From: Mobula hypostoma
Taxonomy: Eukaryota
Reading direction: 5' to 3'
Assembly (NCBI RefSeq): GCF_963921235.1
Contig: NC_086097.1
Span: 60,018,001 to 60,082,000, forward strand
Length of the DNA stretch: 64,000 bases
The position numbers and the translations under genes were made by a program. The notes under the pieces were generated by a model, which was not told where the DNA came from, did not search any database, and was given only the letters and a program-made list of their open reading frames with translations. Shown piece after piece: positions 3,521-58,669 of this stretch (position 1 is the stretch's first letter; every line of letters begins with the position of its first letter).

Positions 3521-3991
3521 GGCAGTCAGCAGCCAAACCCTGCTTCTCTGTTTGGTATGTTCTTTCTGTTGTGAAAATGATTGTTGCATCATTTAAATGA
3601 GTACTCCAAACAAGATGTCCATCTTAATCCACAAAATGTGATTCAAAGACATTTTAATTATCATTGCAGCATGAAGTTTTATTTATAAGACTTCTGCCTC
3701 ACATCCATCAGCTGGAAAGCATGAATGATATTTATAAAACCCACCAATTAGGACATTACTCAAATTATTTTAACACTGATATCTATTATTATTGATAAGA
3801 TGTAATAAGTATTAGTTCCAGTAATATAGACATAATATGTAAGTAATCTTTCTAGATCTTAATCCCTTTATCAGAACGAGAATAACATCTTCTGTTCAGA
3901 TGTTGCTACTGAAAGTACATGATCTGATTACTCACCTCATTAAAGCTTGTGGGGCCTTGCTACATGATATAACTATCACTAGTCTATATTA

Positions 3992-5594
3992 TAAACCCCA
4001 TTTCCAGAAAAGTTGGGATATTTTCCAAAATGCAATAAAAACAAAAATTTGTGATATGTTAATTCACGTGAACCTTTATTTAACTGATAAAAGTACAAAG
4101 AAAAGATTTTCAATAGTTTTACTGACCAACATAATTGTATTTTGTAAATATACACAAATTTAGAATTTGATGGCTGCAACACACTCAGCAAAAGTTGGGA
4201 CAGAGTTAAAATAAGATTGAAAAGTGCACAGAATATTCAAGTAACACCGGTTTGGAAGACTCCACATTATGCAGGCTAATTGGTAGCAGGCGAGGTATCG
4301 TGACTAGGTATAAAAGTAGCGTCCATCAAAGGCTCAGTATTTGCAAGCAAGGATGGGTCGTGGCTCACCCCTTTGTGCCAAAATTCGTGAGAGAATTGTT
4401 AGTCAGTTCAAAAGGAACATTTCTCAATGCAAGATTGCAGAGAATTTAGGTCTTTCAACATCTACAGTACATGATATTGTGAAAAGATTCAGAGAATTCG
4501 GAGACATCTCAGTGCGTAAAGGGCAAGGTCGGAAACCACTGTTGAATGCCCGTGGTCTTCGAGCCCTCAGGCGGCACTGTCTAAGAAACCCTCATGCTAC
4601 TGTGACAATTATAGCCACCTGGGCTCGGGAGTACTTCAGAAAATCATCGTCACTCAACACTGACTGTTGCTGCATCTAGAAATGCAACTTGAAACTGTAT
4701 TACGTAAGGAGGAAGCCATACATCAACTCTATGAAGAAACACTGGCGAGTTCTCTGGGCCCGAGCTCATCTCAGATGGACCGAAAGACTGTGAAACCGTG
4801 TGCTGTGGTCAGATGAGTCCATATTTCAGCTAGTTTTCAGAAAAAACAGGCGTCGAGTTCTCCATGCCAAATAGGAAAACAACCATCCAGATTGTTATCA
4901 GTGAAAGGTGCAAAAGCCAGCATCTGTGATGGTATGGGGGTGCATCAGTGCCCACGGCATGGGTGAGTTGCATGTATGTGAAGGTACCATTGACTCTGAG
5001 GCATATATTAGGATTTTAGAGAGACATGTGTTGCCATCAAGGCGACGTCTCTTCCCGGGACATCCATGCTTATTTCAGCAGGACAATGCCAGACCACATT
5101 CTGCACGGGCTACAACAGCGTGGTTTTGTAGACACAGGGTGCATGTGCTTGACTGGCCTGCTGCCAGTCCAGATCTATCTCCTATTGAAAATTTATGGCG
5201 CATCATGAAGAGGAAAATCAGACAACGGAGACCACGGACTGTTGAGCAGCTGAAGTTTTATATCAAGCAAGAATGGACAAAATTTCCAATTGCAAATCTA
5301 CGACAATTAGTATCCTCAGTTCCAAAACGATTAAAAAGTGTTATTAAAAGGAAAGGTGATGGAACACAATGGTAAACATGCCACTGTCCCAACTTTTGTT
5401 GAGTGTGTTGCAGCCATCAAGTTCTAAATTTGTGTATGTTTACAAAATACAATTAAGTTGGTCAGTAAAACTATTGAAAATCTTTTCTTTGTACTTTTGT
5501 CAGTTAAATAAAGGTTCATGTGAATTAACATATCACAGATTTTTGTTTTTATTGCATTTTGGAAAATATACCACTTTTCTGGAAATGGGGTTTG
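3992..5594 (+). mobile_element. Full-length Tc1 DNA transposon (DD34E) with ~210-bp TIRs and TA target duplication
   Basis: Left end TA|taaaccccatttccagaaaagt is the reverse complement of right end acttttctggaaatggggtttg|TA. TIRs at ~3992-4203 and ~5384-5594. The internal repeat AAAAGTTGGGA occurs at both ends of the left TIR. Confidence 0.97.
4353..5375 (+). pseudogene. Tc1 transposase, 340-codon frame interrupted by several nonsense codons
   Basis: ATG 4353 to TAA 5375 in one frame. Paired-like HTH (IAENLGLSTSTVHDIVKRF), GRKP, WSDES, VMVWGCIS, FQQDNARPH and SPDLSPIENLW, with 34 residues between the second D and E. First in-frame stop at 4677-4679. Confidence 0.95.
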
Positions 5595-5599
5595 TAATT

Positions 5600-5900
5600 C
5601 ATAGAATTATTCAGCACAGAAACAGGCTGTTCAGACCATTAATTCATGTTGATCAATAAGCACCTAATTATTCTAAGCCCATTTATTCTCTCCACATTCC
5701 TCAGAAACACACCCAGATTCTACCACTCACCTGAACTAAAAGGGCAATGTACTTGGGCCAATTAACCAATCAATCCAGCAGCCTTTGGATTGTGGGAGGT
5801 AATTGGAATGCCCAGAGGAAGCCTATGCAGTCGCAGGGAGAGAATCCAAACCTCTGATGTCGCCTGTGTGGAACAAACCCATGTATCATTGTGCTACCAT
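5600..5900 (-). mobile_element. V-domain SINE (HE1-like) with CR1-like tail, degenerate
   Basis: 'ctttggattgtgggaggtaattggaatgcccagaggaagcctatgcagtcgcagggagagaa' resembles the reversed V-SINE core. A reversed CR1-type 3' end lies at 5600-5655. Confidence 0.6.
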
Positions 5901-12814: not shown

Positions 12815-13789
12815 TGTGACGAGAATACACATAAATTAAGATGTTTGCTGGCCTGGGCTAGCATCAGTGGCATCAGCAGTTGGTCTGCCACCTGTCCTCA
12901 GGGGAGGGAGAGATAAGGAACAATGAAGCAGCATTTGGAGATGTTAATGAAGGAGCCATCAGTCTGGGTATCGTCTAGAGCGGCTCCCCCTTTGAACCCT
13001 GAACTGTTTGAAGTGATGGACAGGCGATCTGGAGATGTGTAATGAAGGGACGGGAGAGAGAGCTGTCTAGAGCGGCTCCCCCCTTTGAACCCTGAACTGT
13101 TTGAAGTGATGGACAGGCGATACTCCAGCAGGGGGATAAAAAGGGACAGGTTCGCCAAGGCAGGACACACACGACACCCCGAGGTAATGAGACCCTGGAA
13201 GCGGTGCGCCTCTCACAAGTCGGTGGGAAGCTCTTGGACGGCTGACCGAGGGATCAGCCTTAAACGCACAGGGTGGAAAGGTACGATCAGCGGGAGCCCG
13301 GTGTGTGTCCACCCTCACTTGGGTGCCGGGTTCACTGCAGAGGATTGACTGCATCTGGAGGAGGGGTCACAGTCGGTGACCTCAGGTGACATCACAAAGG
13401 ACCCACCCGAAAGCTGCTTGTGAGCAATATCGCCGGTCTGTGAGTGGAAGCCGTTCTGAATGAACAGTCGTTCTCGTTCTCTCTCTCCCTCCCCCCACGT
13501 TGTCCATTGCCATGGCAACGATTACTGCGAACTGAACTAAATTGGACTGAACTTTGTGTCACTTCGAAATTGGTCCTTTACCCCTAGACAACGATAGAGC
13601 TTGATTGACGCTGTTATCTTAATTCTGTGCACATGTGTGTTTATCATTGCTGAACTGTTGCATTTATTATCCTTTCGATTACTGTGTTGCTTGTTTCTTT
13701 AATAAAACTTTCTTAGTTCTAGTAATCCAGACTCCAATTGAGTGATCCATTTCTGCTGGTTTGGCAACCCAGTTACGGGGTACGTAACA
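12815..13789 (+). repeat. 5' LTR (975 bp)
   Basis: TGTGACGAG...GGTACGTAACA. TATA-like GATAAAAA at ~13135 and AATAAA at 13701. Contains a ~56-bp direct repeat (12973-13028 and 13065-13121). Confidence 0.97.
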
Positions 13790-13793
13790 TAAG

Positions 13794-13812
13794 TGGGGTT
13801 CTCGTCTGCGAT
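13794..13812 (+). promoter_or_regulatory. Primer binding site, tRNA-Pro-like (imperfect)
   Basis: TGGGGTTCTCGTCTGCGAT, 4 nt after the LTR, versus the canonical tRNA-Pro PBS TGGGGGCTCGTCCGGGAT. Confidence 0.75.
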
Positions 13813-13888
13813 TTTGAACACTAAATTTGGGACGGAGTAAATTGATTTGGTCAAAATTCCCGAAAGAAAGAAAAGACAAACAGCAGAA

Positions 13889-15612
13889 ATGGAGGCTGAG
13901 GAATTTATAAAGGCGCCGACCTTGGAGGCATTAGAGGATGCCAGGAAATTGGAATTGGTAGCTGTGGCCATACGGTTGAATCTTGCTAAGGGGAAGTCGA
14001 CAATGAGGAGAGAGGAGTTACAAAGAGCTATCGTAGAGCACTATGTATCTAAAGGTGTGTTTCCCCAAGGCGAGCTGGAGGTGGTGTCTATTGAAAACCT
14101 TCTGGAGATGCGGTAGAGGTGCAGCTTGAAAAACTGAGACTCGAGCACGAGTTCCGGGTACGACAGTTGGAGCGAGAAGAGAAGGAGAGAGAGAGGTAGA
14201 AAGGCAAGAGAGAGAGAGAGAGACAGTTGGAGAGAGAAGAGAAAGAGAGAGACAGACAGCTGGAGAGAGAAGAGAAAGAGAGAGAGAGACAGTTGCAGCG
14301 AGAGGAGAAACAGAGGGAAAGGGAATTCGAATTGGAGAAGTTAAGGTTAAGGGCAGAGCAGGGGCTCGTGTCGAACCAAGGTGGAGGGTTCCGGGCGACC
14401 CAGGAGGTTAGGCTGGTTCCCCCATTTGACGATACCGACGTGGATCGGTACTTTCTCCACTTCGAAAAAGTGGCTATAAGTCAGGACTGGCCGAGGGATA
14501 AACGGGTTGTTTTACTTCAGAGTGTACTGAAAGGGAAAGCCCAAGAAGCTTACTCCGCTTCGTCCGCGGAAGATGCCCAGAGGCATGAGGTGGTGAAAGA
14601 GGCCATCCTCAGGATTTATGAGTTGGTCCCGGAGGCATACCGGCAGAGGTTCCGGAATGCGAGGAAGCAGTGGGACCACACGTATTTGGAGTTTGCCCGT
14701 GAGATGCAGACATATTGTGAGCATTGGTGCGCCTCGAAGGGGGTAGAGGGGGATTATGACAGACTGCTGCAGCTGATCCTGATTGAGCAGTTTAAAGGTT
14801 GTGTCCCTGAAGGTATGAGACCCTACCTCGATGAGAAAGAGGCAGCCACATTAGCCGCAACTGCTAAGTCAGCGGATGAGTATGCGTTGACACATAAAAT
14901 GAAGTTTGCCCCGAGTAAAGGCTACCAGAAGGGTAGTCAGGACGGCGGGGAGAGTCCGCCGGAAAAGTCAGAAAGTAAGCCGGGGACTAGTGAGAAGGAT
15001 AAGGTAGACCGGGAGCAGTCTGATAGGAAGTCTCCCGGGGTCGTCTGTTATAATTGCGGGAAAGTCGGACACTTTGCATCCAGGTGCTTTGCCCCAAAGA
15101 AGGAGACGGGAAAAGGGAAGACAGCAATTTTGATTGGCTGTATCGAGCTGTTAAGCGAACCGCTAGGGAAGGATAGGTCTGCCAAAGTTCAGGAAGGGCA
15201 CGAGAGGTTTATCTCGGCCAGATTGGTGTCAGTGAAGGAGGGGTTAAAACCAGTTCCAGTGCGGATCTGGAGAGACACGGGAGCGTGTCAGTCACTAATA
15301 CTGAAGAGTGTATTAGAGTTTAGCTCAGAGACCCGGACTGGGGAGGTAGAGGTCAAAGGTGTTGGGGAAGGGACAGAGTCAGTCCCTTTGCACCAGATAC
15401 ACTTACAAAGCAACCTGGTCTCTGGACTAGTCACGATCGGGGTGAGGTCCGAATTACCGATGAAGGGCGTGGAAGTCTTGCTCGGTAATGACGTCGCCGG
15501 AGGAATCGTGTTCCCAGCAGTGAGATTGACAGGTCAGCCTGCCAGCATTGAGGCCCCGCCCATGGACTCACAGGTTCATCATGGGGCTGCGGTAGTGAAT
15601 TTAGCTATTTAG
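13889..15612 (+). pseudogene. Gag (coiled coil, SCAN-like capsid, CCHC knuckle) plus aspartic protease
   Basis: MEAEEFIKAPTLE start; frameshift near 14095; TAG at 14197 in the GA-rich tract. ORF 14227..15612 contains LVPPFDDTDVDRYFLHFE, PEAYRQRFR...LILIEQF (SCAN-like), CYNCGKVGHFASRC and IWRDTGACQSLI. Confidence 0.9.
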
Positions 15613-15630
15613 CTGCGGTGGTAAATTTAG

Positions 15631-16886
15631 TTGAATGAGACGTGGGTAGAAAATGAAAAGAGGGAGTGTAGTGAGACAAGAGGTAGTGAGGGAGCTGGGA
15701 CAGACATAGCAGTAGCCAGGAAAGAATTTGTGCAGATGCGGGAGCGAGACGAGGGGCTGATGGTTTCGGCAGAGACAGCTCTCTCTGACACAGACTTGAC
15801 AAGGGAACTAGTAGGCTATTGTGCGGAGGAGGAAGTGATAAGGAAGAAAGGGAAATCAAGTACAGTACCCGCAGATGAGGAATGGGGGGTGGTGCAAAAG
15901 AGTTATGAGGATGAGATTTTTAACCTGGCCCACAAGGTACCTCCCGGTGGACATTTTGCGGTGCTGGAGGAAACAGTTGGTGGAATCATGAAAGAGGTTT
16001 ACTGGCTGCCCAGGGGGGAGGATGTTATTGATTATGGCCGACGCAAACTGAGACAGTCACAGGCTTTTGATATGCTAACAAACCTAGTCGGGGTTAGTGT
16101 GGACATCAATGAAGCTAGGGTCCCCCCGATAAGAGGGAAAAACCATTTTGAAAAGATTAGTATGGTATCGATCAGATGGGAGAAGGCTATTGTTTTGGCC
16201 AGGTCTACTGATAAGGTCTCTCCCTTAATCCCCGAACAAAGTGGCTCTTTAGGAGAAGTAATTAAACGACTCGCACCCGTGTGTTTGATTGTCCCGAGGC
16301 GATGCAAAGAACTGGGACGTTGGGTGATGTCTGTTACAATAGGCCAGCCTAGTAAACAACATCCATATATAATGAGTAATTCAGTGACTAAAGGGCTGAT
16401 GAACACAGAGGTGTGTATTGGCAATTTAATACAGCTGTCTGAAGCCAGCTTGATAGTGAACCTTGAAAAAAATGAGTTCGGCCACGCGAAGGTCACTTAC
16501 CTGGGAATTGTGGTGACAGAGGGGCAGCTGGCAGCAATGCAAGCTACAGTGCAGGCTATCGCTGACCTCCCAACCCCGACAGACAAGAGGGCCCTCAGAA
16601 GGCTCTTGGAGATGGTGGGGTACCGTAGGAAGTTTTGCAATAACTCTGCGGTCACTACCCCTCCCCCTCCTGCTAAGCCCTTGCGAGAGAAAACTAAGTC
16701 AGAATGGGATGACCCTTGTTATTGTGGTCCGGGACAAAACCAAATGAGAGGTTACATTGATCGCAATTCATCAGTATTTTTGGCCACTATGAAGTTTGCT
16801 GAGTTGGAGCCTGGTCTAAGGGATTATTAATAACACATATAAAAGGGATGGAAAATGTGATTACTGACTGTCTGTCAAGGTGCTGA
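15631..16886 (+). pseudogene. Compressed pol remnant: integrase Zn-finger part, RT fragments, RNase H fragments
   Basis: EIFNLAHKVPPGGHF...VYW (IN N-terminus); PSKQHPY; GLMNTEVCIGNL (position of YxDD); VNLEKNEFGHAKVTYLG; LRRLLEMVGYRRKFCNN; YIDRNSSVFL; and, frameshifted at 16821-16886, HIKGMENVITDCLSR (RNase H end). Confidence 0.8.
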
Positions 16887-16991
16887 CAACTTCAAATTCT
16901 CTGTATTAGCCAAATAGCTGATAAAGATGTATATTTGTGTGTATCAAATAATGTACTCATGTTTGTAATTTTTACCCCGGTAAAAATCCTT

Positions 16992-17003
16992 AAAGGGGGG
17001 AAG
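16992..17003 (+). promoter_or_regulatory. Polypurine tract
   Basis: AAAGGGGGGAAG immediately before the 3' LTR. Confidence 0.9.
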
Positions 17004-17885
17004 TGTGACGAGAATACACATAAATTAAGATGTTTGCTGGCCTGGGCTAGCATCAGTGGCATCAGCAGTTGGTCTGCCACCTGTCCTCAGGGGAGGGAGA
17101 GATAAGGAACAATGAAGCAGCATTTGGAGATGTTAATGAAGGAGCCATCAGTCTGGGTATTGTCTAGAGCGGCTCCCCCTTTGAACCCTGAACTGTTTGA
17201 AGTGATGGACGGGCGATACCCCAGCCGGGGGATAAAAAGGGACAGGTTCGCTAAGGCAGGACACACACGACACCCCGAGGTAACGAAACTCTGGAAGCGG
17301 TGCGCCTCTCACAAGTCAGTGGGAAGCTCTTGGACGGCTGACCGGGGGATCAGCCTTAAACGCACAGGGTGGAAAGGTACGATCAGCGGGAGCCCGGTGT
17401 GTGTCCACCCTCACTTGGGTGCCAGGTTCACTGCAGAGGATCGACTGCATCTGGAGGAGGGGTCACAGTCGGTGACCTTAGGTGACATCACAAAGGACCC
17501 ACCCGAAAGCTGCTTATGAGCAATATCGCCGGTCTGTGAGTGGAAGCCGTTCTGAATGAACAACCGTTCTCGTTCTCTCTCTCCCTTCCCCCACGTTGTC
17601 CATCTCCATGGCAACGATTACTGCGAACTGAACTAAATTGGACTGAACTTTGTGTCACTTTGAAATTGGTCCTTTACCCCTAGACAATGATAGAGCTTGA
17701 TTGATGCTGTTATCTTAATTCTGTGCACATGTGTGTTTATCATTGCTGAACTGTTGCATTTATTATCCTTTCGATTACTGTGTTGCTTGTTTCTTTAATA
17801 AAACTTTCTTAGTTCTAGTAATCCAGACTCCAACTGAGTGATCCATTTCTGCTGGTTTGGCAACCCAGTTACGGGGTACGTAACA
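17004..17885 (+). repeat. 3' LTR (882 bp)
   Basis: Same termini as the 5' LTR. Roughly two dozen substitutions by eye, and it lacks the ~92-bp internal unit. Confidence 0.97.
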
Positions 17886-18856: not shown

Positions 18857-19899
18857 ATCACTTTATCATATGTGTTTATGGACAATCTACTGAAGAACCT
18901 GAATAAATGATATAATTGAAATTGTAAGATAAATTGTCGGCATTAGGAATGATAGAACGTAGGAATTACTAATGACCTTGAGACCTCCCAATTGGGTAAT
19001 TAGTTGGGATTCATAGATCTGAATTCATGACAGGAATAATATGGTCTGGATTTTGCTGATAAATGGTAATCCCCTATGGAATCCAATTGTGTAGCTGATA
19101 ATCTCCCAAATATAGTCTGAGAATCTGCTTTAGAATCTTTTACCTGGACAGAACTGTGAATCCTTTGATTTTAGTAAGATTGAGAGGAGGAGAAAGAAAA
19201 GACTAAAATAAGATTTCTTTTAAATTGTGTGCTACTTGTTCAGCTCTTCTAACATCTCTTTAATTCCCTTTAGCTGCTATTATTTATTGGATGAATACGT
19301 TTTATGTAACCCAGGTTAATTAAACCCAAAAGATGTAATGTTGGAAAGCTCCACCTGCAGAGGGATGTAAATAAGGTTACCAAATTAAAAGAGAGAGAAC
19401 TTGAAAATAATAGCTACGCAAGAATGAGGCATGGCTGACACAGACATGGACAAGTGACAGAAACACAGCAAACTATAGAAACTACTAAAGATGAAAAAAA
19501 TGTTAAGAGTGGAGTTAGTACTTCTGGAAGTATATGTTTTCTATTCACTGCCTCCTTCTGATATCTAGAGCTTCTGATGGCTCACTAGCACCTAGTGTAG
19601 TATTATGTAATTTGATTTTCTCATAAATAGTGCGGCGACCAGTCACACCGGTCAGACAAGCACTACACAGGTGTTACATTTAATTTTATTATTTTTTCAC
19701 GTTGGTAGTTTTTAAATATTTCAGTATTTATAAACAATGAAAATTGAAAATGTAAGCTTTGATTGTCTGCAAAATTGAGGGCAGGAATCAGCTGACTGTC
19801 AAGTTTTTTGTCTTTGGTATCTGGACTCTCTCTCATAAAGATAATCTTTATTTGGTATCATTTGTATAGATAAAGCAAATCCTGTAAATTATTGCATAG

Positions 19900-20350
19900 T
19901 TGTCAACACAAATCAGTACAAGCAAACCAGTCTCTGCACTGTTGACTCCACCTACACTTCCTGCTGCCTTGGCAAAGCAGCTAATATAAACAAGAAACCT
20001 TCCTACCGCAGTCATTCACACTTCTCCCCTCTGCTGTCCAGCAGAAGATTTAAAAGCCTAAGAGCACAAAGCACCAAAGTCAAGGACAGATTCTATCGGT
20101 CTGTTAACAGACGCTTGACTGGACCTCTCAAACATTAAGCAGAACTCTTGAGCTCTTGATCTCCCAATTTACATTGTCATGGTCCTTTCAGTTTATTTGC
20201 TAATCTGCACTTTCACTGTAACTGCAACACTATTATGCATTCCATTTTCTTTTAACTACTTGTCTGTAATTATGTTTGGTTTGTTCAGTCTGGATGACAT
20301 GCAAAACAAAAGCTTTTCACAGTATCTCAGGGTATTTGATAATAATAAGC
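19900..20350 (+). mobile_element. Old Rex1-type 3' fragment
   Basis: Decayed 'CLGKAANI.K..S...HS.FSPL.S.RRFKSL' coding region plus Rex1-like 3' UTR. Confidence 0.6.
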
Positions 20351-25221: not shown

Positions 25222-26630
25222 CTGATAATGCTCCCCAACTCTTCCTCTGCTACATTGATGACTGTATAAGAGCTACTTCATACACCAATGCTGAGCTCAT
25301 CAATATCATCAACTTTGCCTCCAACTTCCACTCTGCCCTTCCATTCAATGGTCCATCTCTGACACCCCCTCCCATTTCTCAATCTCTCTGTTTCCATCTC
25401 AGGAGACAGATTGTCAATCAAAATCTTTTATAAACCTACTGATTCCCATGGTTATCTTGACTATACCTCTTCCCACCCTATCTCCAATAAAATAGCTATT
25501 CCCTTGTCTCAGTTCTTGCGCAATCGCCGTGTCTGTTCCCAGGACATGGCTTTCTGTTCCCGGACATCAGAGATGTCCTCGTTGAAAGAATGGGGTTTCT
25601 CTCCCTCCAATATTGATGATACCCTTACCCGCATCTCCTCCATTTCCTGAACAACCACACTTACCTTACCTTCCCGCTGCCTTAACAGTGATAGAGTTCC
25701 TCCTGTCCTTACCAATCACTCCATGAGCCTTTGTAATCAACACATCATCCTCTGCAACTTCCGCTGTCACCAAAACGACCCTACTAAACATATCTTTACC
25801 TCTCCACTCCTCCGTCCACTTTCCTCAGAGATCTCTCCCTCTGTGATTCCTTTGTCCATGTGCTCCTGCCCACTAATCTCCCTCCTGATACTTACCCCTG
25901 CAAGTGGCCCAAGTGCTACACCTGCCCATACACTTCCTCTATCGCCTCCATTCAGGACTCCCAAACAGACCTTCCAGGTGAAGAAAAACTTCAGCTGCAA
26001 ATCTTCTAGGGCTACCTATTGTGTCTGGTGCTCCCAATGCGGCCTCCTCTACATTGGTGAGATCCATCATAAACAGTGGAGCACTTTGTCGAACACCTCC
26101 GCTCCATCTACCATAAAGTGGAGCTTCCCGATGGCCAAACATTTTAATTTCCATTTCCATTCCCATTCCAGCATTTTGGTCCATGGTCTCCTCTTGTGCC
26201 AATATGAGGCCACCCTCAGGATAGAGGAACAACACCTTATATTCCATCTGAGTAGCCTCCAACCTGATAGCATAAATATTGATTGCTCCACCCAATCTCC
26301 TCTTCCTCTGTTCCTCACTCCGACAGTTTACCTCTTTTCATTTGCCTATCACTTCCCCCCTAGTCCCCTCCTCATTCCCTTTCTCCTATGGTCCACTCTC
26401 CTCTCCTATCAGATTCCTTCTTCTCCAGCCTTTGACCTTTCTCACACACCTGGTTTCACCTATCACAGTCTAGTTATACTTCCCCTGCCCCCACCTTTTT
26501 ATTCTGGTGCCTTCCCCTTTCCTTCTCAGTCCTGATGAAGGGTCTCTGTCCAAAGTGTCGATAGTTTATTTACATTACTGTAGATTCTGCCTGACCTTCT
26601 GAGTTCCTCCAGCATTTTGTGTGTGTTGCT
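25222..26630 (+). mobile_element. Penelope-like element, 5'-truncated: RT C-terminus, GIY-YIG endonuclease and pseudo-LTR tail
   Basis: LFLCYIDDCI (YIDD at 25251-25262); IFYKPTDSHGYLDYTSSHP; FSCKSSRATYCVWCSQCGLLYIGE (GIY-YIG-like); EEQHLIFHLSSLQPDSINID; pyrimidine-rich 3' region; decayed hammerhead CAGTC-CTGATGA at 26527-26538. Confidence 0.92.
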
Positions 26631-34936: not shown

Positions 34937-35032
34937 CAGTCCTACTGAAGGGAATTGGCCCGAAATATTAACAGTACTCTTTTCCATAGATGCTGCCTGG
35001 CCTGCTGAGTTCCTCCACCATTTTATGTGAGA
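34937..35032 (+). mobile_element. 96-bp Penelope-tail insert with 8-bp TSD
   Basis: TCCTTATC at 34929-34936 and 35033-35040. The insert begins CAGTCCTACTGAAGGGAATTGGCCCGAAA. Confidence 0.85.
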
Positions 35033-51149: not shown

Positions 51150-51275
51150 CATGAGACTACACATGTTGGAATCTAAAGCAATGATCAGTCTGCTGGGGGA
51201 ACTCAACTGGCCAAGTAGCATCTGTGGGAGGAAAGGAACTGTTGACGTTTCACATCAAAACATCAACAGCAGTCC
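51150..51275 (-). mobile_element. Degenerate Penelope tail
   Basis: Reverse strand 'gaaacgtcaacagttcctttcctcccacagatgctact...gagttcccccagcag'. Confidence 0.7.
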
Positions 51276-52219
51276 TTTTATCTTCTTGTCTTAGGTACTG
51301 ACATATACCAGAACCAGTAGCTGTTCATCACCTCCCTTCAGATTACTGTTCAGTTCCTCCTTGACCTGAGCACTACAATTTAATCTCTCTATAGTTTCTT
51401 TAATGAGAAAGAAAGGCAGACATACCCATCTATTCTAACTACCACTCATCTGCTGTCTCTGTCTCCATAGTCAACTCCATCATTGGTACTAGCATCTGTA
51501 GTATCCAAGATATCTTCAAGGAGTGGTGCCTCAGAAAAGTGGATTCCAACATAAGATCATAAGACGTAGGAGCAGAATTAGGCCATTTGGCCCATCGAGT
51601 CTGCTCTGCCATTCATTCATGGCTGATCCTTTTTCCCCTTCCTCAGTCCCACTCACCAGCCTTCTCCCTGTAACCTTTGATGCCATGTCCAATCAAGAAA
51701 CCATCAAGTTCTGCCTTAAATACACCTAACAACCTAGCCTCCACAGCTGCCTGTGGTAATAAATTCTACAAATTCACCACCCTCTGACTAAAGAAATTCT
51801 CCGCATCTCTGTTTTAAATGTATGCCCCTTTATCCTGAAGCTGTGCCCTCTTGTCCTAGACTCCCCCACCATGGGAAACATCTACTTTGTCTAGGCCTTT
51901 CAACATTCCAAAAGTTTCAATGAGATGCCCCCTCCTCATCTTTTTAAATTCCAGTGAGTACAGACCCAGAGCTATCAAATGTTCCTTGTATGATATCCCT
52001 TTCATTCCCAGAATCATCCTTGTGAACCTCCTCTGAATCCTCTCCAATCCAAGCTCACCTTTTCATAGATGAGCTCTAAACTGTTCACAATACTCAAGGT
52101 AAAGCCTCATGTGTACCTTATAAAACCTCAGCATCATATCCCTGCATTCTACACCTCTTGAAATAAATTCTAACATTTCATATGCTTTCCTCACTACTAA
52201 CTCTACCTGCAAGTTAACT

Positions 52220-52305
52220 GACGAAGGGTTCCAGCCCGAAACGTCGACTGATCTTTTCCACGGATGCTGCTCGACCTGCGGAGTTCCTCCAGCGTGTTGA
52301 GAGTG
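52220..52305 (+). mobile_element. 86-bp young Penelope-tail insert with TAACT TSD, inside CR1
   Basis: TAACT at 52215-52219 and 52306-52310. CpG-rich insert (CT)GACGAAGGGTTCCAGCCCGAAACGTCGACTG... Confidence 0.88.
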
Positions 52306-54206
52306 TAACTTTTTGGTGTTCTGCACAAGGACTCTCAAATCCCTTTGCATCTCAGATTTTTTCAATTTTCTGCCCGTTTAGAAAATAGTCTGCACCTTTA
52401 TTTCTACTACCAAACCACATGACCATGCATTTTTTCAACATTGTAGTTCATTTGCCACTATCTTGCCAATTCTCCATATCTGTATGTCCTTCTGCAGCCT
52501 ACCTGTTTCCTCAGCACAATCTGCCCCTCCACCAATCTTTGTATCATCTGCAAACTTGGAAACAAAGCCATCTATTCCATCATCTAAATCACTGATAGAG
52601 ACCATAAAAAGCAGTCTCAACAGTGACCCCTGCAGAACACCACTATCCAACCAGAAAATGATCCTTTTATTCCCACTCGCTGCCTCCCACCAGTCAGTCA
52701 ATACTCTAACCACGCCAGTAACTTTTCTGTAATGTCATGGGCTCTTAACTTGGTAAGCAGCCTCATGAGTGGCACCTTGTCAGAAGCCTTCTGAAAGTCC
52801 AAATATGCAACATCCATTACATTCCCTTTATCGATCCTATCTGTAATTTCCTCAAAAAATTCCAGAAGTTTCTTCAGGCAAGATTTTCCCTTAAGGAAAC
52901 CTTACTGACGTTGTCCTATCTTGTTCTGTGTCACCAAGTGCTCCATAATCGCATCCTTATCAATTGACTCCAATATCTTCCCAACCCCTGAGATCAGGCT
53001 AATTGGACTATAATTTGCTTTCTGCTGCTTCCTCCTTTCTTAAAGAGTGGAATGGCAATTGCAATATTCCAATCCTCTGGCACCATGCCAGTGTCTAATG
53101 ATTTTTGAACGATCATTACTAATGCCTCACAGTCTCTACCTCTATCTCTTTTAGAATCCCAGACTGCAGTCCATCCTGGGTCTTGCAGCATTTTAGCTCC
53201 TACTTCCTTGTAATAGTAACTGCACTCACTTCTCTTCCCTCACACCCTTCAACATCTGGCACACTGCTTATGTCTTCCGCAGAGAAGACAAATGCAAAAT
53301 ACTCATTGAGTTCATCTGCCATCTCCTTGGCCCCATTACTATTTCTCTGGCCTCAGTTTCTTATGGTCCTATATCCACTGCAATCTCACTTTTTTTTTTC
53401 ATACTTGAAAAAGCTTTTACTATCCACTTTGATGTTGTTTGCTAGCTTGCTTTCATATTTCATCTTTCCCTCCTAATGATTCTTCAGGAAGGTTTTAAAA
53501 GCTTCCCTATCCTCTCTGGAGGGTTTTAAAAATTTCCCCAGTCTTCCATCTTTCCACTATTATTTGCTTTGTTGTGTGCCCTCTCCTTTGCTTATGCATT
53601 AGCTTTGACTTTACTTGTCAGCCGCAGTTGTACTCATTTTTCATAGAAACTCATACCATTGCTATTCTGCTGTCATCCCTGCGAGCATTTCCTTCTAATT
53701 TTCTTTGGCCAACTCCACTCTCAAACCACTGAAACACTGCTACATCAGACTTTACTTTCTCCCTATCAAATTTAAAGTTGAACTCAATCATATTGTGATC
53801 ACTGCCTCCTAAGGATTCTTTTAGCATAAGCTCCCTAATCACCTCCAGTTCATTACATAACACCCAAACAACTATAACTGATGCCCTAGTAGGCTCAATG
53901 ACAAACTGCTCCAGAAATCCATCTCATAGGCATTCAACAAACTCACTCTTGAGATCCATTTCCAACCTGATTTTCCCCAATCGATCTGTATGTTGAAATT
54001 CCCCACGATTATCATAACATTGCCCTTTTGACACCCCTTTTCTATTTCCCATTGCAATCTATGGTCCACATCCCAGCTACAGTTGGGTGGCCTGTATATG
54101 ACTGCCATCAGGGTCATTTTACCCATGCAGCTTCTTTACTCAACCCACATGGATTCACCAACTTCCAATCTTATGCCACATCTTACTGATTTGATGACAT
54201 TCTTCA

Positions 54207-54677: not shown

Positions 54678-56929
54678 ATTCTTCACCAGGATAGCCATCT
54701 GACACCACCCACCCCCCCCCCCCACCCTGCCACCTACCTTCCTATCCCTCCAATACAATGTGTAACCTTGGACATTCAACTCCCAACTACAACTATCCTT
54801 CAGCCACAACATCATACCCGACAATCTGTAATAGTATGACAAGATCATCCACCTTGTTTCTTATACTCCATGCACTGAGATATAACACTTTGAGTGCCGC
54901 ATTTGCTACCCTTTTAGATTCTGCATTCCTAATGCACTGATACTCAACCTGCTGACTGCAATTATGTCCTATCATCTGCCTACCCTTCCTGACAGTCTGA
55001 CTCCATGCTATCTTTGCCTTTTTACCATCTGTCCTATCTTAAGTCCCTTCACTCCAGATCTCAACCCGCTGTCAAATTAGTTTAAACCCTCCCCAACAGC
55101 TCTAACAAACCTGCCCGCAAGAATATTGGTTCTTCTCGGGTCAGAAGCAACACCTCACTTTTGAACAGGTCACATCTCCCCCCAAAGAGATCCCAATAAT
55201 CCAGGAACCTGAAGCCCTACACTCTGCATCAGCTTCTCAGCCAAGCATTAATTGGCCAAATCATCCTGTTTCTACCCTCACTGGTCATGGCACAGGCTGC
55301 AATCTGGAAATTACTGCCCACGAGGTCCTGCTTCTCAGCTTTCTACATAGCTCTCTAAACTCTCTTTACAGGACCTCTGATTTTTCTTCCTATGTCATTG
55401 GTACCAATATGTACCAAGACATCTGGCTGCTCTCCCTCCCTCTCCAAAATGTTGTGGATATGATCTGAGACGTCCCTGACCCTGGCATCTGGGAGGCAAC
55501 ATACCATTTCAGTGTTCTGTTCATGTCCACAGATCTCCTGTCTGTTTCTCTGACTATTGACTCCCCTATCACTACCACTTATCTTTCCCTTCTGCACCAC
55601 AGACCCATGCTCAGTGCCAGTCACCCAGTCTCTGTGGTATTCCTCTGGGACATCTTCTCCCACAACAGCATTCAAAATGGTATACTTATTATTGGGGGAA
55701 TGGCCACAGGGATCCTCTGTGCCAACTGCTTATTCACATTTCTATTTCTCCTGACAGTCATCCATCTACTCTTCTCCTGTAACTTTATGCTGACTACTTC
55801 CCTGTAACTCTGATTATCTCATTTTACTGTACAAGCTGAAGGTCGTCCAGCTGCTGCTCCACATCCCTAACACAGTCTTCAAGGAGCTGCAGCCGGATGC
55901 ACTTCATGCAGATGTATTTCCTTGGGAGACCCTGGGTCCAGCATCCGGCATGAAGAACACACAACAGCCATGTACTACACCAGGAAAAAAAAAGGGAAAC
56001 CTTAACATAAGCTTACCCAGAACCAATATCTCTTTTGAACCAAAGCCTCCTTTGTGCCCAAGTTTGAGACTCCTATTCTCCTCACTGGCCCACTCCCAAC
56101 AATGTCCATCCTGCTCGTCCCTTCTATACTTTTCTAGGAGATAGGCGACGCTTCTTTAAATGTTTTGAACTGTGATGTCAAAACTGGACCTCCCTCTTTG
56201 TCTCTTGGTAATGTCTGAGAATATACCTCCCCGCACTACTCTACTTGTTCTGGATATCTAACCTTTCGAATTTCTGCAACTATCTGCATCTTCTGTAGAT
56301 CTAGTGACTCCCTTCTTTACCTTAAATTTCTGTGATTGGAATTCCATTCTATTATACACATGCATGAAAACTATTAGATGGAGAGAGATCACCTGATGAC
56401 TTCTCTTCACTCCATTACCTTGAGGTATTGAAAATAATTACAATATCCCGAGAAGTAGCTTTCCTTGTTCAGGGTAACTTAAGCGAATGGGTGCAACTTA
56501 TTTAGTTTCTCACTGGACAGGTTCCAGTGGCAGCAGGTGAACCACAAAGTGCATTTTTAAAGACTTTTGATTAATAACATTTCATTCCCAGCTGCACTAT
56601 TGTGCTACTGCCTTCAAATTAGTTACTATTATTTTTAACATTTTCATTGGAGAACAGACACCTGGAAAATTGCCCTGTGCAGCAGCTACACTGAGTGTGA
56701 AAGAGAGTGCTGAACATGCTTCACACCGGAGGGCCCCTGAAGCAAGGTCAGAATGATTGGAACATTGCATCTGATTTGGTCTATCCTGCTAAATATTTCT
56801 AGTATTTTCTGTTTTTAATTACAATTACTCTAGCTCTCTCTGGATTTAGTTTGATGGATTAGAGCCAATTAATATTGGTCATTAAATATCCAAACTGAGG
56901 TCCTTATTTCATCTATTTCCTCTGGGTTT

Positions 56930-57250
56930 CCCACCCCCCCCCCCACCCTTGTCTTTCTCCCTGGGCCTCCTGTCCCATGATCCTCTCATATCCCTTTTGC
57001 CAATCACCAGTCCAGCTCTTGGCTCCATCCCTCCCCCGCCTGTCTTCTCCTATCATTTTGGATCTCCCCCTCCCCCTCCAACTTTCAAATCCCTTACTCA
57101 CTCTTCCTTCAGTTAGTCCTGACGAAGGGTCTCGGCCTGAAACGTCGACTGTACCTCTTCCTAGAGATGCTGCCTGGCCTGCTGCGTTCACCAGCAACTT
57201 TGATGTGTGTTGCTTGAATTTCCAGCGTCTGCAGAATTCCTGTTGTTTCC
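56930..57250 (+). mobile_element. Young Penelope 3' pseudo-LTR fragment
   Basis: Pyrimidine-rich region plus tail homologous to 26330-26630, with CpGs retained. Confidence 0.9.
57114..57151 (+). ncRNA. Minimal type I hammerhead ribozyme motif
   Basis: TAGTC-CTGACGA-AGGGTCTCGGCCT-GAAA-CGTC^GACTG: CUGANGA and GAAA boxes, stem II, stem I (TAGTC/GACTG), palindromic ACGT stem III and a GUC cleavage triplet. Confidence 0.8.
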
Positions 57251-57719
57251 CTTTCCAGTCTGAGGACATATTACTGTATGTACCCTCAGCCTTTATTTTC
57301 TGATACTTTTACATTGAAAATCTGTATATTTGTGATCAAAAGAAAAGTTGCAAGGTGTAGAAAGGTATTTAAATGTAAATCGCTATCTGTGGATGACAAC
57401 AGAATTTCAAATAGCTGATCAGCCAACAGAGAAAAAAAATCACTCTGAATCTTTTAAGGTGTCAGGGGAAAATTCAGTTATTGTAGTGATGAAAACAGAG
57501 TAACATGCATTATTCAGTGGCCTACATTTTTTTTCTGTCTTTCAAGTGATTCACGTACATCATTAGTTCCTTACATTGTTGAATGATATGTGATTTCAGA
57601 GTCACTTATACTTTTTGGCTATTTTTTGTTGCATGTCCAAATCATTATTCTGTACCTTTAAGCAAAACAAAAAAAATGAAACATTTGATGGCTGCTAATA
57701 TATTAGGATGTCCAACTTG

Positions 57720-57965
57720 CTATTAGTGGTTATTAATAGTACTGACCATAAAACTATCAGACTGTCTTTAAAACACATCTGGCTTTCTTGTGTAATCTAA
57801 AGAAGAAAAGCTGCTATCCTGAAATAATTTGTATTTATTTCCAAATCCTTGGCAATGTGGCTGAGTCTTAATCACGCTCTAATTTGCCTTAGCAAACAAC
57901 TTGGTTCAATTGCAATTAGGAATGGGTAGCAAGTTACACTCATGCCCCAGAAATGAATTAATAAA
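57720..57965 (+). mobile_element. Very old SINE remnant
   Basis: 'gaccataaaactatcagactgtctttaaaacacatctgg...gcaatgtggctgagtcttaa...gcaattaggaatggg...aatgaattaataaa' resembles a common shark SINE 3' half. Recalled, not aligned. Confidence 0.45.
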
Positions 57966-58221
57966 CTATTAGTGAAGGCATAAAAGGCTGCCAAAGTCAT
58001 GGAGGTAGGGCTTACAGGTTGATATAAAGGTTCAATCAAAACCAAATGATATGCCACTGTTCACATGGCTTAGCTCTGCTTGAGCCAGCCACCGAGTATA
58101 GCTACAGTGAGTGACAATCTACTGAGTGACAACACTAACACTGAGTGCCAGTTGAGAGGAAGTTCAACTGACAAGAAAGTACATTGACAGTGTAAGGGAA
58201 GTTAACAGACTCAGAAAAAGT

Positions 58222-58475
58222 CTATAAGACCGTAGAATAGAGGCAGAATTAGGCTATTTGGCCCATCGAGTCTGCACCACCATTTCTTCATGGTTGATCC
58301 ATTTTCCTCTCAGCTGCAATCTCCTGCTTTCCCCCAGTATTCTTTCATGCCCTAACCAATCAAGAATCTACAAACCTCAGCCTTAAATATACATAAAGAC
58401 TTGGCCTCCACAGCGGCCTGTGGCAACAAATTCCATAGATTCACCACTCCTTATCTAAAGAAATTCCTCTTCATG
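58222..58475 (-). mobile_element. CR1 3' end fragment
   Basis: Homologous to 51548-51800. Confidence 0.9.
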
Positions 58476-58669
58476 AAGTCATTAGATATACAAACACAAG
58501 AACATGCATTAGATATGAATTAGAGATGAATTACCCTTGAGAAAAATCATTAGATAGTGACCGTATATGTTCAAAGACCTGATAAAATGGATACATTTGC
58601 CAATGGCTGGCTTTAGGATTGGTGAAAAGGACTGGGAGAAATACAAAGCAAAGATATTTAAGGCAGGGT

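Follow-up and report, generated by a model that had tools for sequence, protein, structure and literature searches.

Does the hammerhead motif at positions 57114-57151 of the analysed Mobula hypostoma DNA (contig NC_086097.1, 60,018,001 to 60,082,000; this 64,000-nucleotide stretch is termed the window, and all positions refer to it) still act on host RNA, or is it a remnant of the retroelement that brought it there? A preliminary description had regarded it as an intact minimal hammerhead ribozyme in a young Penelope pseudo-LTR that might equip a host transcript with a cleavage site. Based on the analyses reported below, we favor, with a probability of about 0.85, a minimal hammerhead in a lone 5'-truncated piece of a Penelope-like element, likely copied by the reverse transcriptase (RT) of the element from RNA that was intact across the cut site, and likely inactive now.

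Anatomy and identity of the hammerhead motif

The boxes, the stem I arms, CGTC, C57146 and the ACGT palindrome were each confirmed in the sequence where the preliminary description had placed them (see Table 1). All 11 core positions, the palindrome and 5/5 stem I pairs are preserved at 57114-57151, and stem II has 4/4 pairs if G·U is counted as a pair. The CUGANGA and GAAA boxes are present and followed by NUH; stems I and II can pair in type I topology, the corresponding fold being predicted only without the upstream sequence. A minimal descriptor (core boxes, paired 15.2/16.2, UH, stem II of at least 3 bp, stem I of at least 4 bp) matched solely at 57119 on both strands of the window and gave 0 matches in 150 first-order Markov windows; a looser CTGANGA-gap-GAAA pattern had 20 matches (7.1 expected), overlaps being counted and most matches stemless. 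The Rfam hammerhead covariance models gave no match in the window at gathering score and none over 56700-57400 at E<=10, as is expected for a motif without stem III. Judged by its sequence and the published descriptor, the motif can be classified beyond chance as a minimal type I hammerhead of the kind found in Penelope-like elements, in line with the anatomy proposed earlier; the attribute "intact" is appropriate for all 11 core bases, but not for the closing pair of stem II, which is G57127·U57138 instead of G-C.

Table 1. Positions of the motif, of the insertion that contains it and of two related copies in the window.
Feature	Position	Strand	Evidence or remark
Stem I 5' arm, TAGTC	57114-57118	+	Sequence; 5/5 pairs with 57147-57151, one of them U·G
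Catalytic box C3-A9, CTGACGA (CUGACGA)	57119-57125	+	Sequence
Extra A between positions 9 and 10.1	57126	+	Sequence; alternative partner U57138
Stem II, 4 bp including two G·U, loop of 4 bases; closing pair G10.1·U11.1	57127-57138	+	Folding energy, contig alleles
Box G12 A13 A14 A15.1, GAAA	57139-57142	+	Sequence
ACGT (ACGU) palindrome replacing stem III	57142-57145	+	Sequence; pairing would need two copies
CGTC	57143-57146	+	Sequence
C17, predicted cleavage 3' of this base	57146	+	Hammerhead numbering
Stem I 3' arm, GACTG	57147-57151	+	Sequence
Solo 5'-truncated terminal-repeat fragment of a very high-copy Penelope-like element, ~337 bases	56913 to ~57248	+	Contig depth, empty site
Pyrimidine-rich upstream part of the terminal repeat	56913-57113	+	Last 14 bases predicted to pair over CUGACGA and the stem II 5' arm
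Tail beyond the cut site, ending at the common 3' end of the family	57152-57248	+	Contig loose ends
Older decayed Penelope-like 3' end: C-terminal part of RT, CX4CxxC linker, GIY-YIG, pyrimidine tract, broken hammerhead (26527), tail	25230-26630	+	Protein relatives, DNA match
Second core-intact copy, ~90 bases, in a LINE relic	52218-52311 (3' end approximate)	+	4.9 kb upstream of 57114

Penelope-like elements of metazoans carry minimal hammerheads (min-HHRs) in their terminal repeats (Cervera and De la Pena 2014, PMC4209133), with reported examples in Xena, Poseidon and Neptune elements from fishes, coelacanth and Xenopus; the accessible text of that paper does not mention cartilaginous fish among the hosts. 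The motif at 57114 shares with them both core boxes, the missing stem III, the palindromic 15.2-16.2, the extra base between 9 and 10.1 (typical, though outside the published descriptor), the short stem I and the occurrence mostly as single dispersed copies left by truncated elements. It deviates in that G10.1·U11.1 takes the place of the highly conserved G-C pair, and in its stem II of just 4 bp with two wobbles (PMC4209133). A literature search for Penelope hammerheads of rays or sharks found nothing specific, most subscription papers being outside its coverage.

Penelope-like origin of the family

No coding relic was found beside 57114, and the copy at 56913-57248 is without a coding part; the family is tied to Penelope-like elements through its older relative at 26527, which is located behind an RT/GIY-YIG frame. 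The homologous motif and tail at 26519-26630 match 57104-57214 (DNA, E 6e-9) and follow ~240 bases 3' of a decayed frame that has a CX4CxxC linker and an LLYIGE motif; the linker, CKWPKCYTC near 25900, has its counterpart in the relatives P0003, P0045 and P0085. A word-indexed search with the frameshifted frame yielded no relative among 210 candidates, whereas the HMMER search succeeded, with 221 relatives of frame 25981-26292 at E<=0.001 (best named relatives: stingrays and a skate). Twelve relatives were scanned: three long ones contain RVT_1 and GIY-YIG, four a weak GIY-YIG alone, and the others are host gene models with an embedded piece or gave no family. The relatives align back to 25222-26502 of the window (+ strand), and via P0045, P0085 and P0071 an RT followed by a C-terminal GIY-YIG in one frame was recognized at 25230-26290. 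The Penelope-like origin suggested by the preliminary description is thus supported by the relic preceding the homologous motif. Neptune or Nematis elements are distinguished by a CX2-5CxxC linker that joins RT to endonuclease (PMC8557442), so that the family would, by its linker sequence, be of the Neptune/Nematis type.

For the subfamily to which the 57114 copy belongs (U11.1, see below), the direct link is limited to the read-through tail of P0003, matched weakly (E 0.001, 450-base search), and the low-complexity upstream part aligned to the older 26527 copy no better than shuffled sequence did (score 87, shuffle maximum 94). Pieces of Penelope-like elements also occur in predicted gene models of rays: a stingray RECQL5 isoform model (P0165) ends in the antisense translation of element tail and ribozyme (57112-57247, - strand), and P0017, P0035 and P0138 include pieces of Penelope endonuclease.

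Limits and age of the insertion

Four public contig sets were aligned to 56450-57750 (X2, 75,337; X5, 129,715; X9, 22,886; X18, 10,593 contigs). The depth was ~7 in the flanks (X2, single-copy level) versus summed millions over 56934-57241; although summed depth does not equal copy number, the family is plainly enormous. Contig 26 of organism C (932 bases) represents the empty site, as it covers 56672-56912 and 57250-57724 with 4 letters between, while contigs 17 and 24 of organism B enter the element from each flank by 49 and 29 bases, the 29 bases at the right junction being slightly below the 31-base bridging rule. The insertion therefore extends from 56913 to ~57248 and is older than the split of A and B and younger than their split from C. 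The flanks differ from the window by 21/1012 substitutions in organism B (~2%) and 30/839 in organism C (~3.6%). The insertion is thus fairly young, as had been proposed; of the term "pseudo-LTR", the Penelope-like terminal repeat could be retained, but the copy is a solo truncated fragment and no member of a pair flanking a gene. Its ends are accurate to a few bases, a clear target-site duplication was not seen, and at least two substitutions are private to it (57009 and 57038; the family allele reaches 97-99% in X2). X18 (a run guessed to be RNA) had depth in 11/30 bins, all of them repeats, and a search for RNA data sets containing 55600-58600 listed none; both results are uninformative on expression.

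Loose contig ends pile at 57248 in X2, X5 and X18, so that the family 3' end is situated 102 bases beyond C17. By analogy with PAc, the Poseidon element of Anolis carolinensis (Frangieh et al. 2024, PMC11167929), this end is likely the start of reverse transcription: in PAc the hammerhead is likewise positioned near the repeat end, the inserted DNA likewise spans the uncut site, RT starts internally on uncut RNA, and genomic copies end 85-92 bases beyond the cut site (values subtracted from published figures). The two systems differ in the CX4CxxC linker (Neptune/Nematis type) of the family studied here and in the ACG without a frame that the 57114 copy has where the in-ribozyme start codon might lie. 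Reverse transcription of the 57114 copy would have begun ~100 bases 3' of the cut site and covered ~337 bases before it stopped.

The stem II closing pair and the U11.1 subfamily

With T at 57138, the closing pair of stem II in the family register is G57127·U57138. The G10.1-C11.1 pair, although highly conserved and typical of min-HHRs, is outside the published descriptor and so not defining (PMC4209133). The C allele at 57138 amounts to 36% of the summed depth in X2, 41% in X5, 83% in X9 and 26% in X18, these shares being biased to contigs at least 82% like the 57114 copy. Together with 57164 and 57202, this position constitutes a set of three linked subfamily-diagnostic sites, at which the window alleles prevail in organisms A and B but are outnumbered in C; the G·U pair is therefore not private decay, and once the A/B lineage had separated from C, a young U11.1 subfamily expanded in it. 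In organism C the long tail to 57248 is nearly missing (depth 1,612 versus 128,647 in X2). G10.1·U11.1 would be expected to lower hammerhead activity; a measured cleavage rate for this pair was not found in the literature. The stem II hairpin is predicted at -2.5 kcal/mol with U11.1 versus -5.1 kcal/mol with the family C allele.

Conservation among the copies in the window

Family copies were located at 26527, 30262, 34938, 52218, 57114 and 61165 (+ strand) and at 51260 (- strand); the prevalence of the + strand (6/7) concerns small numbers. The alignment of these seven copies left out nhmmer matches at 4773-4668 (4773 is within a Tc1-like transposase) and four below threshold. The five stem II variants on which the preliminary description had based its claim of a structured RNA do exist, all on the + strand (57127, 52226, 34950, 26540, 30275). 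However, three of the four comparison copies quoted there carry 2-4 changes in the 11 core positions, as do five of the six other window copies altogether, the sole core-intact one being 52218; the stem II variation of such core-broken copies is therefore no evidence of a working structure. Compared with the leave-one-out majority, core identity was 52/66 versus 209/286 or 153/189 in the 3' flank (Fisher p 0.44 and 0.72), and the stem II arms had 34/48. Covariation among the seven window sequences was at shuffle level (351/500 shuffles reach it). In consequence, the window copies do not speak for conservation as a structured RNA, there being neither an excess of the core over the flank nor covariation above shuffles. 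Loop 2 was indeed more variable than the flank, as had been noted (7/24, p 2e-5), which may reflect a CpG and mixed subfamilies.

The 52218 copy starts at the catalytic box, contains G10.1-C11.1 and ACGU, is without an adjacent stem I 5' arm and may be bordered by a TAAC duplication. A Gypsy-like RT relic harbors a short copy at 34937-35030, which is flanked by an 8-base target-site duplication, TCCTTATC, and has its 5' end at the first base of stem I. Loose contig ends accumulate in all four runs at 57115-57117 and at 57152-57154 (24 of 1477 loose-end positions listed); that older subfamilies diverge right at the stem I ends hints at selection on the motif in master elements. The tail block is conserved about equally to the motif, and some of these loose ends are true 5' truncations. 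A depth bump at 56758-56845 (~550 in X2 versus 7), with joints to 57115/57116, suggests an old relic of a related tail that is present in all three organisms; this second relic was rejected, its local alignment over 56735-56850 not being significant (12-129 of 300 shuffles reach its score).

Predicted folding and cleavage competence

According to energy models, which ignore tertiary contacts, Mg2+ and proteins, the 57114 monomer folds best as a rod that pairs GACG (catalytic box) with CGUC (cut site); the predicted share of open core decreases from 1e-3 in isolation to 6e-6 with the whole element. Adding at least 14 upstream bases is predicted to occlude the box by pairing with the pyrimidine tract, leaving stems I and II at <=5%, and in three read-through contexts they are predicted at <=2%. 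A specific "anti-ribozyme" switch was considered and rejected: shuffled upstream tracts suppress equally in 11, 22 and 48 of 200 cases (30, 60 and 120 bases), although ordinary host DNA placed upstream is mostly non-suppressing (5/57 below 0.1). In the models, the upstream suppression is thus largely compositional rather than a designed switch. The double hammerhead was predicted at -12.7 versus -23.2 kcal/mol for two monomers, i.e. ~10 worse, and the heterodimer with the 52218 copy at -13.4 versus -22.5 kcal/mol.

Published experiments point in a similar direction. A minimal motif on its own did not cleave, and dimers did so to a small extent (PMC4209133); one of nine Xenopus dimers cleaved (10.64898/2026.07.22.740005); the PAc hammerhead is protein-dependent, insertion in vitro does not require it, and RNA-seq revealed no ends at its cut site (PMC11167929). 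A review considers cleavage of such minimal motifs as dimers likely (PMC6765202). Active master elements would cleave poorly, and only with a second copy and/or an element protein, and in read-through host RNA the 57114 copy would fold into other hairpins. On these models the copy is probably a passive relic rather than an RNA switch of the host. Against this reading, the core bases, the palindrome and the stem I pairs of the copy are all preserved, stems I and II are predicted at 50-90% for an RNA start at 57110-57115, and with tens of thousands of family contigs, including those of the run guessed to be RNA (X18), trans partners could be plentiful.

Host exons and other elements in the window

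Self-match and known frames served to mask about 42% of the window as repetitive sequence. Among the 201 non-repeat frames of at least 50 aa no host exon was detected, a scan by which short exons would be missed; the confident Pfam matches were transposon-type domains, the others weak. The candidate exon 19845-20135, the one weak match to a vertebrate domain (Pfam NDNF, E 1e-4, below the cut-off), was dismissed, as no relatives were found. The window also contains a Tc1/mariner-like transposon at 3983-5605 (223-base inverted repeats, 94.6% alike; split HTH / DDE_3 transposase) and a young LTR-type element at 12815-17885, whose repeats, 97-99% alike, surround SCAN, zinc-knuckle gag-like and pol-like frames.

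Contig junctions at the predicted cut site and the 5' motif edge

Among the 12 of 98 contig junctions listed, three exit the element at 57145 or 57146 and re-enter it within 57102-57112 after 2-5 additional letters; under a uniform expectation three such junctions have a probability of 1e-4 for 57145/57146 and ~0.03 for any two-site window, figures that are post hoc and refer to pre-selected junctions. The two junctions of highest depth among the same 12 lead from 57188 and 57225 back to 57115 with a single extra G (depth 118 and 310.5, X5). A pile of 5' ends at 57147 was absent from the 24 of 1477 loose-end positions listed. Both kinds of junction are possible traces of cleavage, of capping or of short tandem retrozyme-like arrays.

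Taken further, the junctions could be fossils of a capped element RNA that starts at ~A57115, whose hammerhead would fold only at a true 5' end and, with protein help, cut off a 32-base capped leader. We consider this unlikely. Positions 57113-57119 fit an initiator consensus with A57115 as +1, stems I and II are predicted to form only for an RNA start at this edge, and three of the six older window copies begin within the equivalents of ~57112-57120 (30262 judged by eye). As for the parts of this proposal, an untemplated G before 57115 might be a copied cap, and units ending at C17 might stem from RT jumping onto ribozyme-cut 3' ends; each of the two is a weak lead. Against a capped start, the first base after the 8-base duplication of the 34938 copy is C, not G. 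Rival causes of the same pattern are a 3' splice site at this edge, stalling at the base of the hairpin, or a nested insertion; the splice site is favored by the tract of 82% pyrimidines that precedes CAG and TAG beside the stem I 5' edge (57090-57116) and by the intron of Drosophila Penelope, which ends at helix I (PMC4209133). A second acceptor-like TAG/GAG before ATG is found directly past the ribozyme (57152-57166). A literature search on capping or transcription starts at this edge of the motif found nothing specific, most subscription papers being outside its coverage.

Alternative explanations

The locus might instead be a unit of a non-autonomous tandem retrozyme and not a truncated Penelope end. 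Retrozymes derive from Penelope terminal repeats and are reported from one chondrichthyan (10.64898/2026.07.22.740005); those of the animal non-LTR type (PMC7229834) carry, as here, a type I hammerhead in a short non-coding repeat akin to Penelope terminal repeats, and the junctions of organism B from 57225 to 57115 and from 57188 to 57115 are head-to-tail. The 57114 copy, however, is single, with unique DNA on both sides and no head-to-tail neighbor; unlike the non-LTR retrozymes it is not tandem and has the minimal instead of the canonical motif, it lacks a real stem III, and it includes 200 bases of the upstream terminal repeat. The empty-site contig rules out a retrozyme at this locus, and at this locus only, which leaves the proposal highly improbable. 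Just as improbable is a host transcript of the + strand in which cleavage at the 57114 site is brought about by ACGU pairing with another copy, for example 52218 within one pre-mRNA or an RNA of the family acting in trans. Indeed, the cores at 57114 and 52218 are both intact, on the + strand, 4.9 kb apart and provided with ACGU, and a strand-swapped dimer of the two can be drawn; but its half with a proper stem I would cut at 52245 instead of 57146 and bears the G·U pair, the other half is without an adjacent stem I arm (GUUAA versus GACUG), the heterodimer is predicted to be less stable than the monomers, the upstream tract suppresses the fold in the models, and no host exon was among the 201 scanned frames. 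The competence in a host transcript that the preliminary description had envisaged is doubtful in view of G10.1·U11.1, the predicted upstream pairing, the unfavorable predicted dimer and the missing host exon.

Somewhat more plausible than the foregoing proposals, albeit still improbable, is that the U11.1 subfamily remained functional by a register shift: A57126 would pair with U57138, restoring the canonical spacing with a 3-bp stem II, and master elements would cleave with protein help. The sequence permits the A-U closure, U predominates in organisms A and B, where it has spread since their separation from C, and hammerheads with a one-pair stem II can be active, though that pair is G-C (PMC544870). 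The shifted register is, however, predicted to be 1.4-2.5 kcal/mol worse than the G·U register, the change from CCCG to CCTG would be expected from CpG decay, and the expansion is no sign of activity, since cleavage of PAc is dispensable for insertion in vitro (PMC11167929).

Implications

An inactive hammerhead in a lone truncated piece is thus the preferred explanation. As one of very many dispersed copies with a published motif, the 57114 locus is of little weight itself; the kind of motif was already known, and only the dating by the empty site and the U11.1 subfamily are new. That U11.1 is the majority form of its lineage fits the view that Penelope elements amplify without need of efficient cleavage. 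If the reading of a capped start at the motif edge were true, the junctions would be genomic evidence for in vivo cleavage by Penelope hammerheads. The copy number of the family in this genome makes the in vivo role of Penelope hammerheads testable by counts of junctions at the cut site and at the 5' edge.
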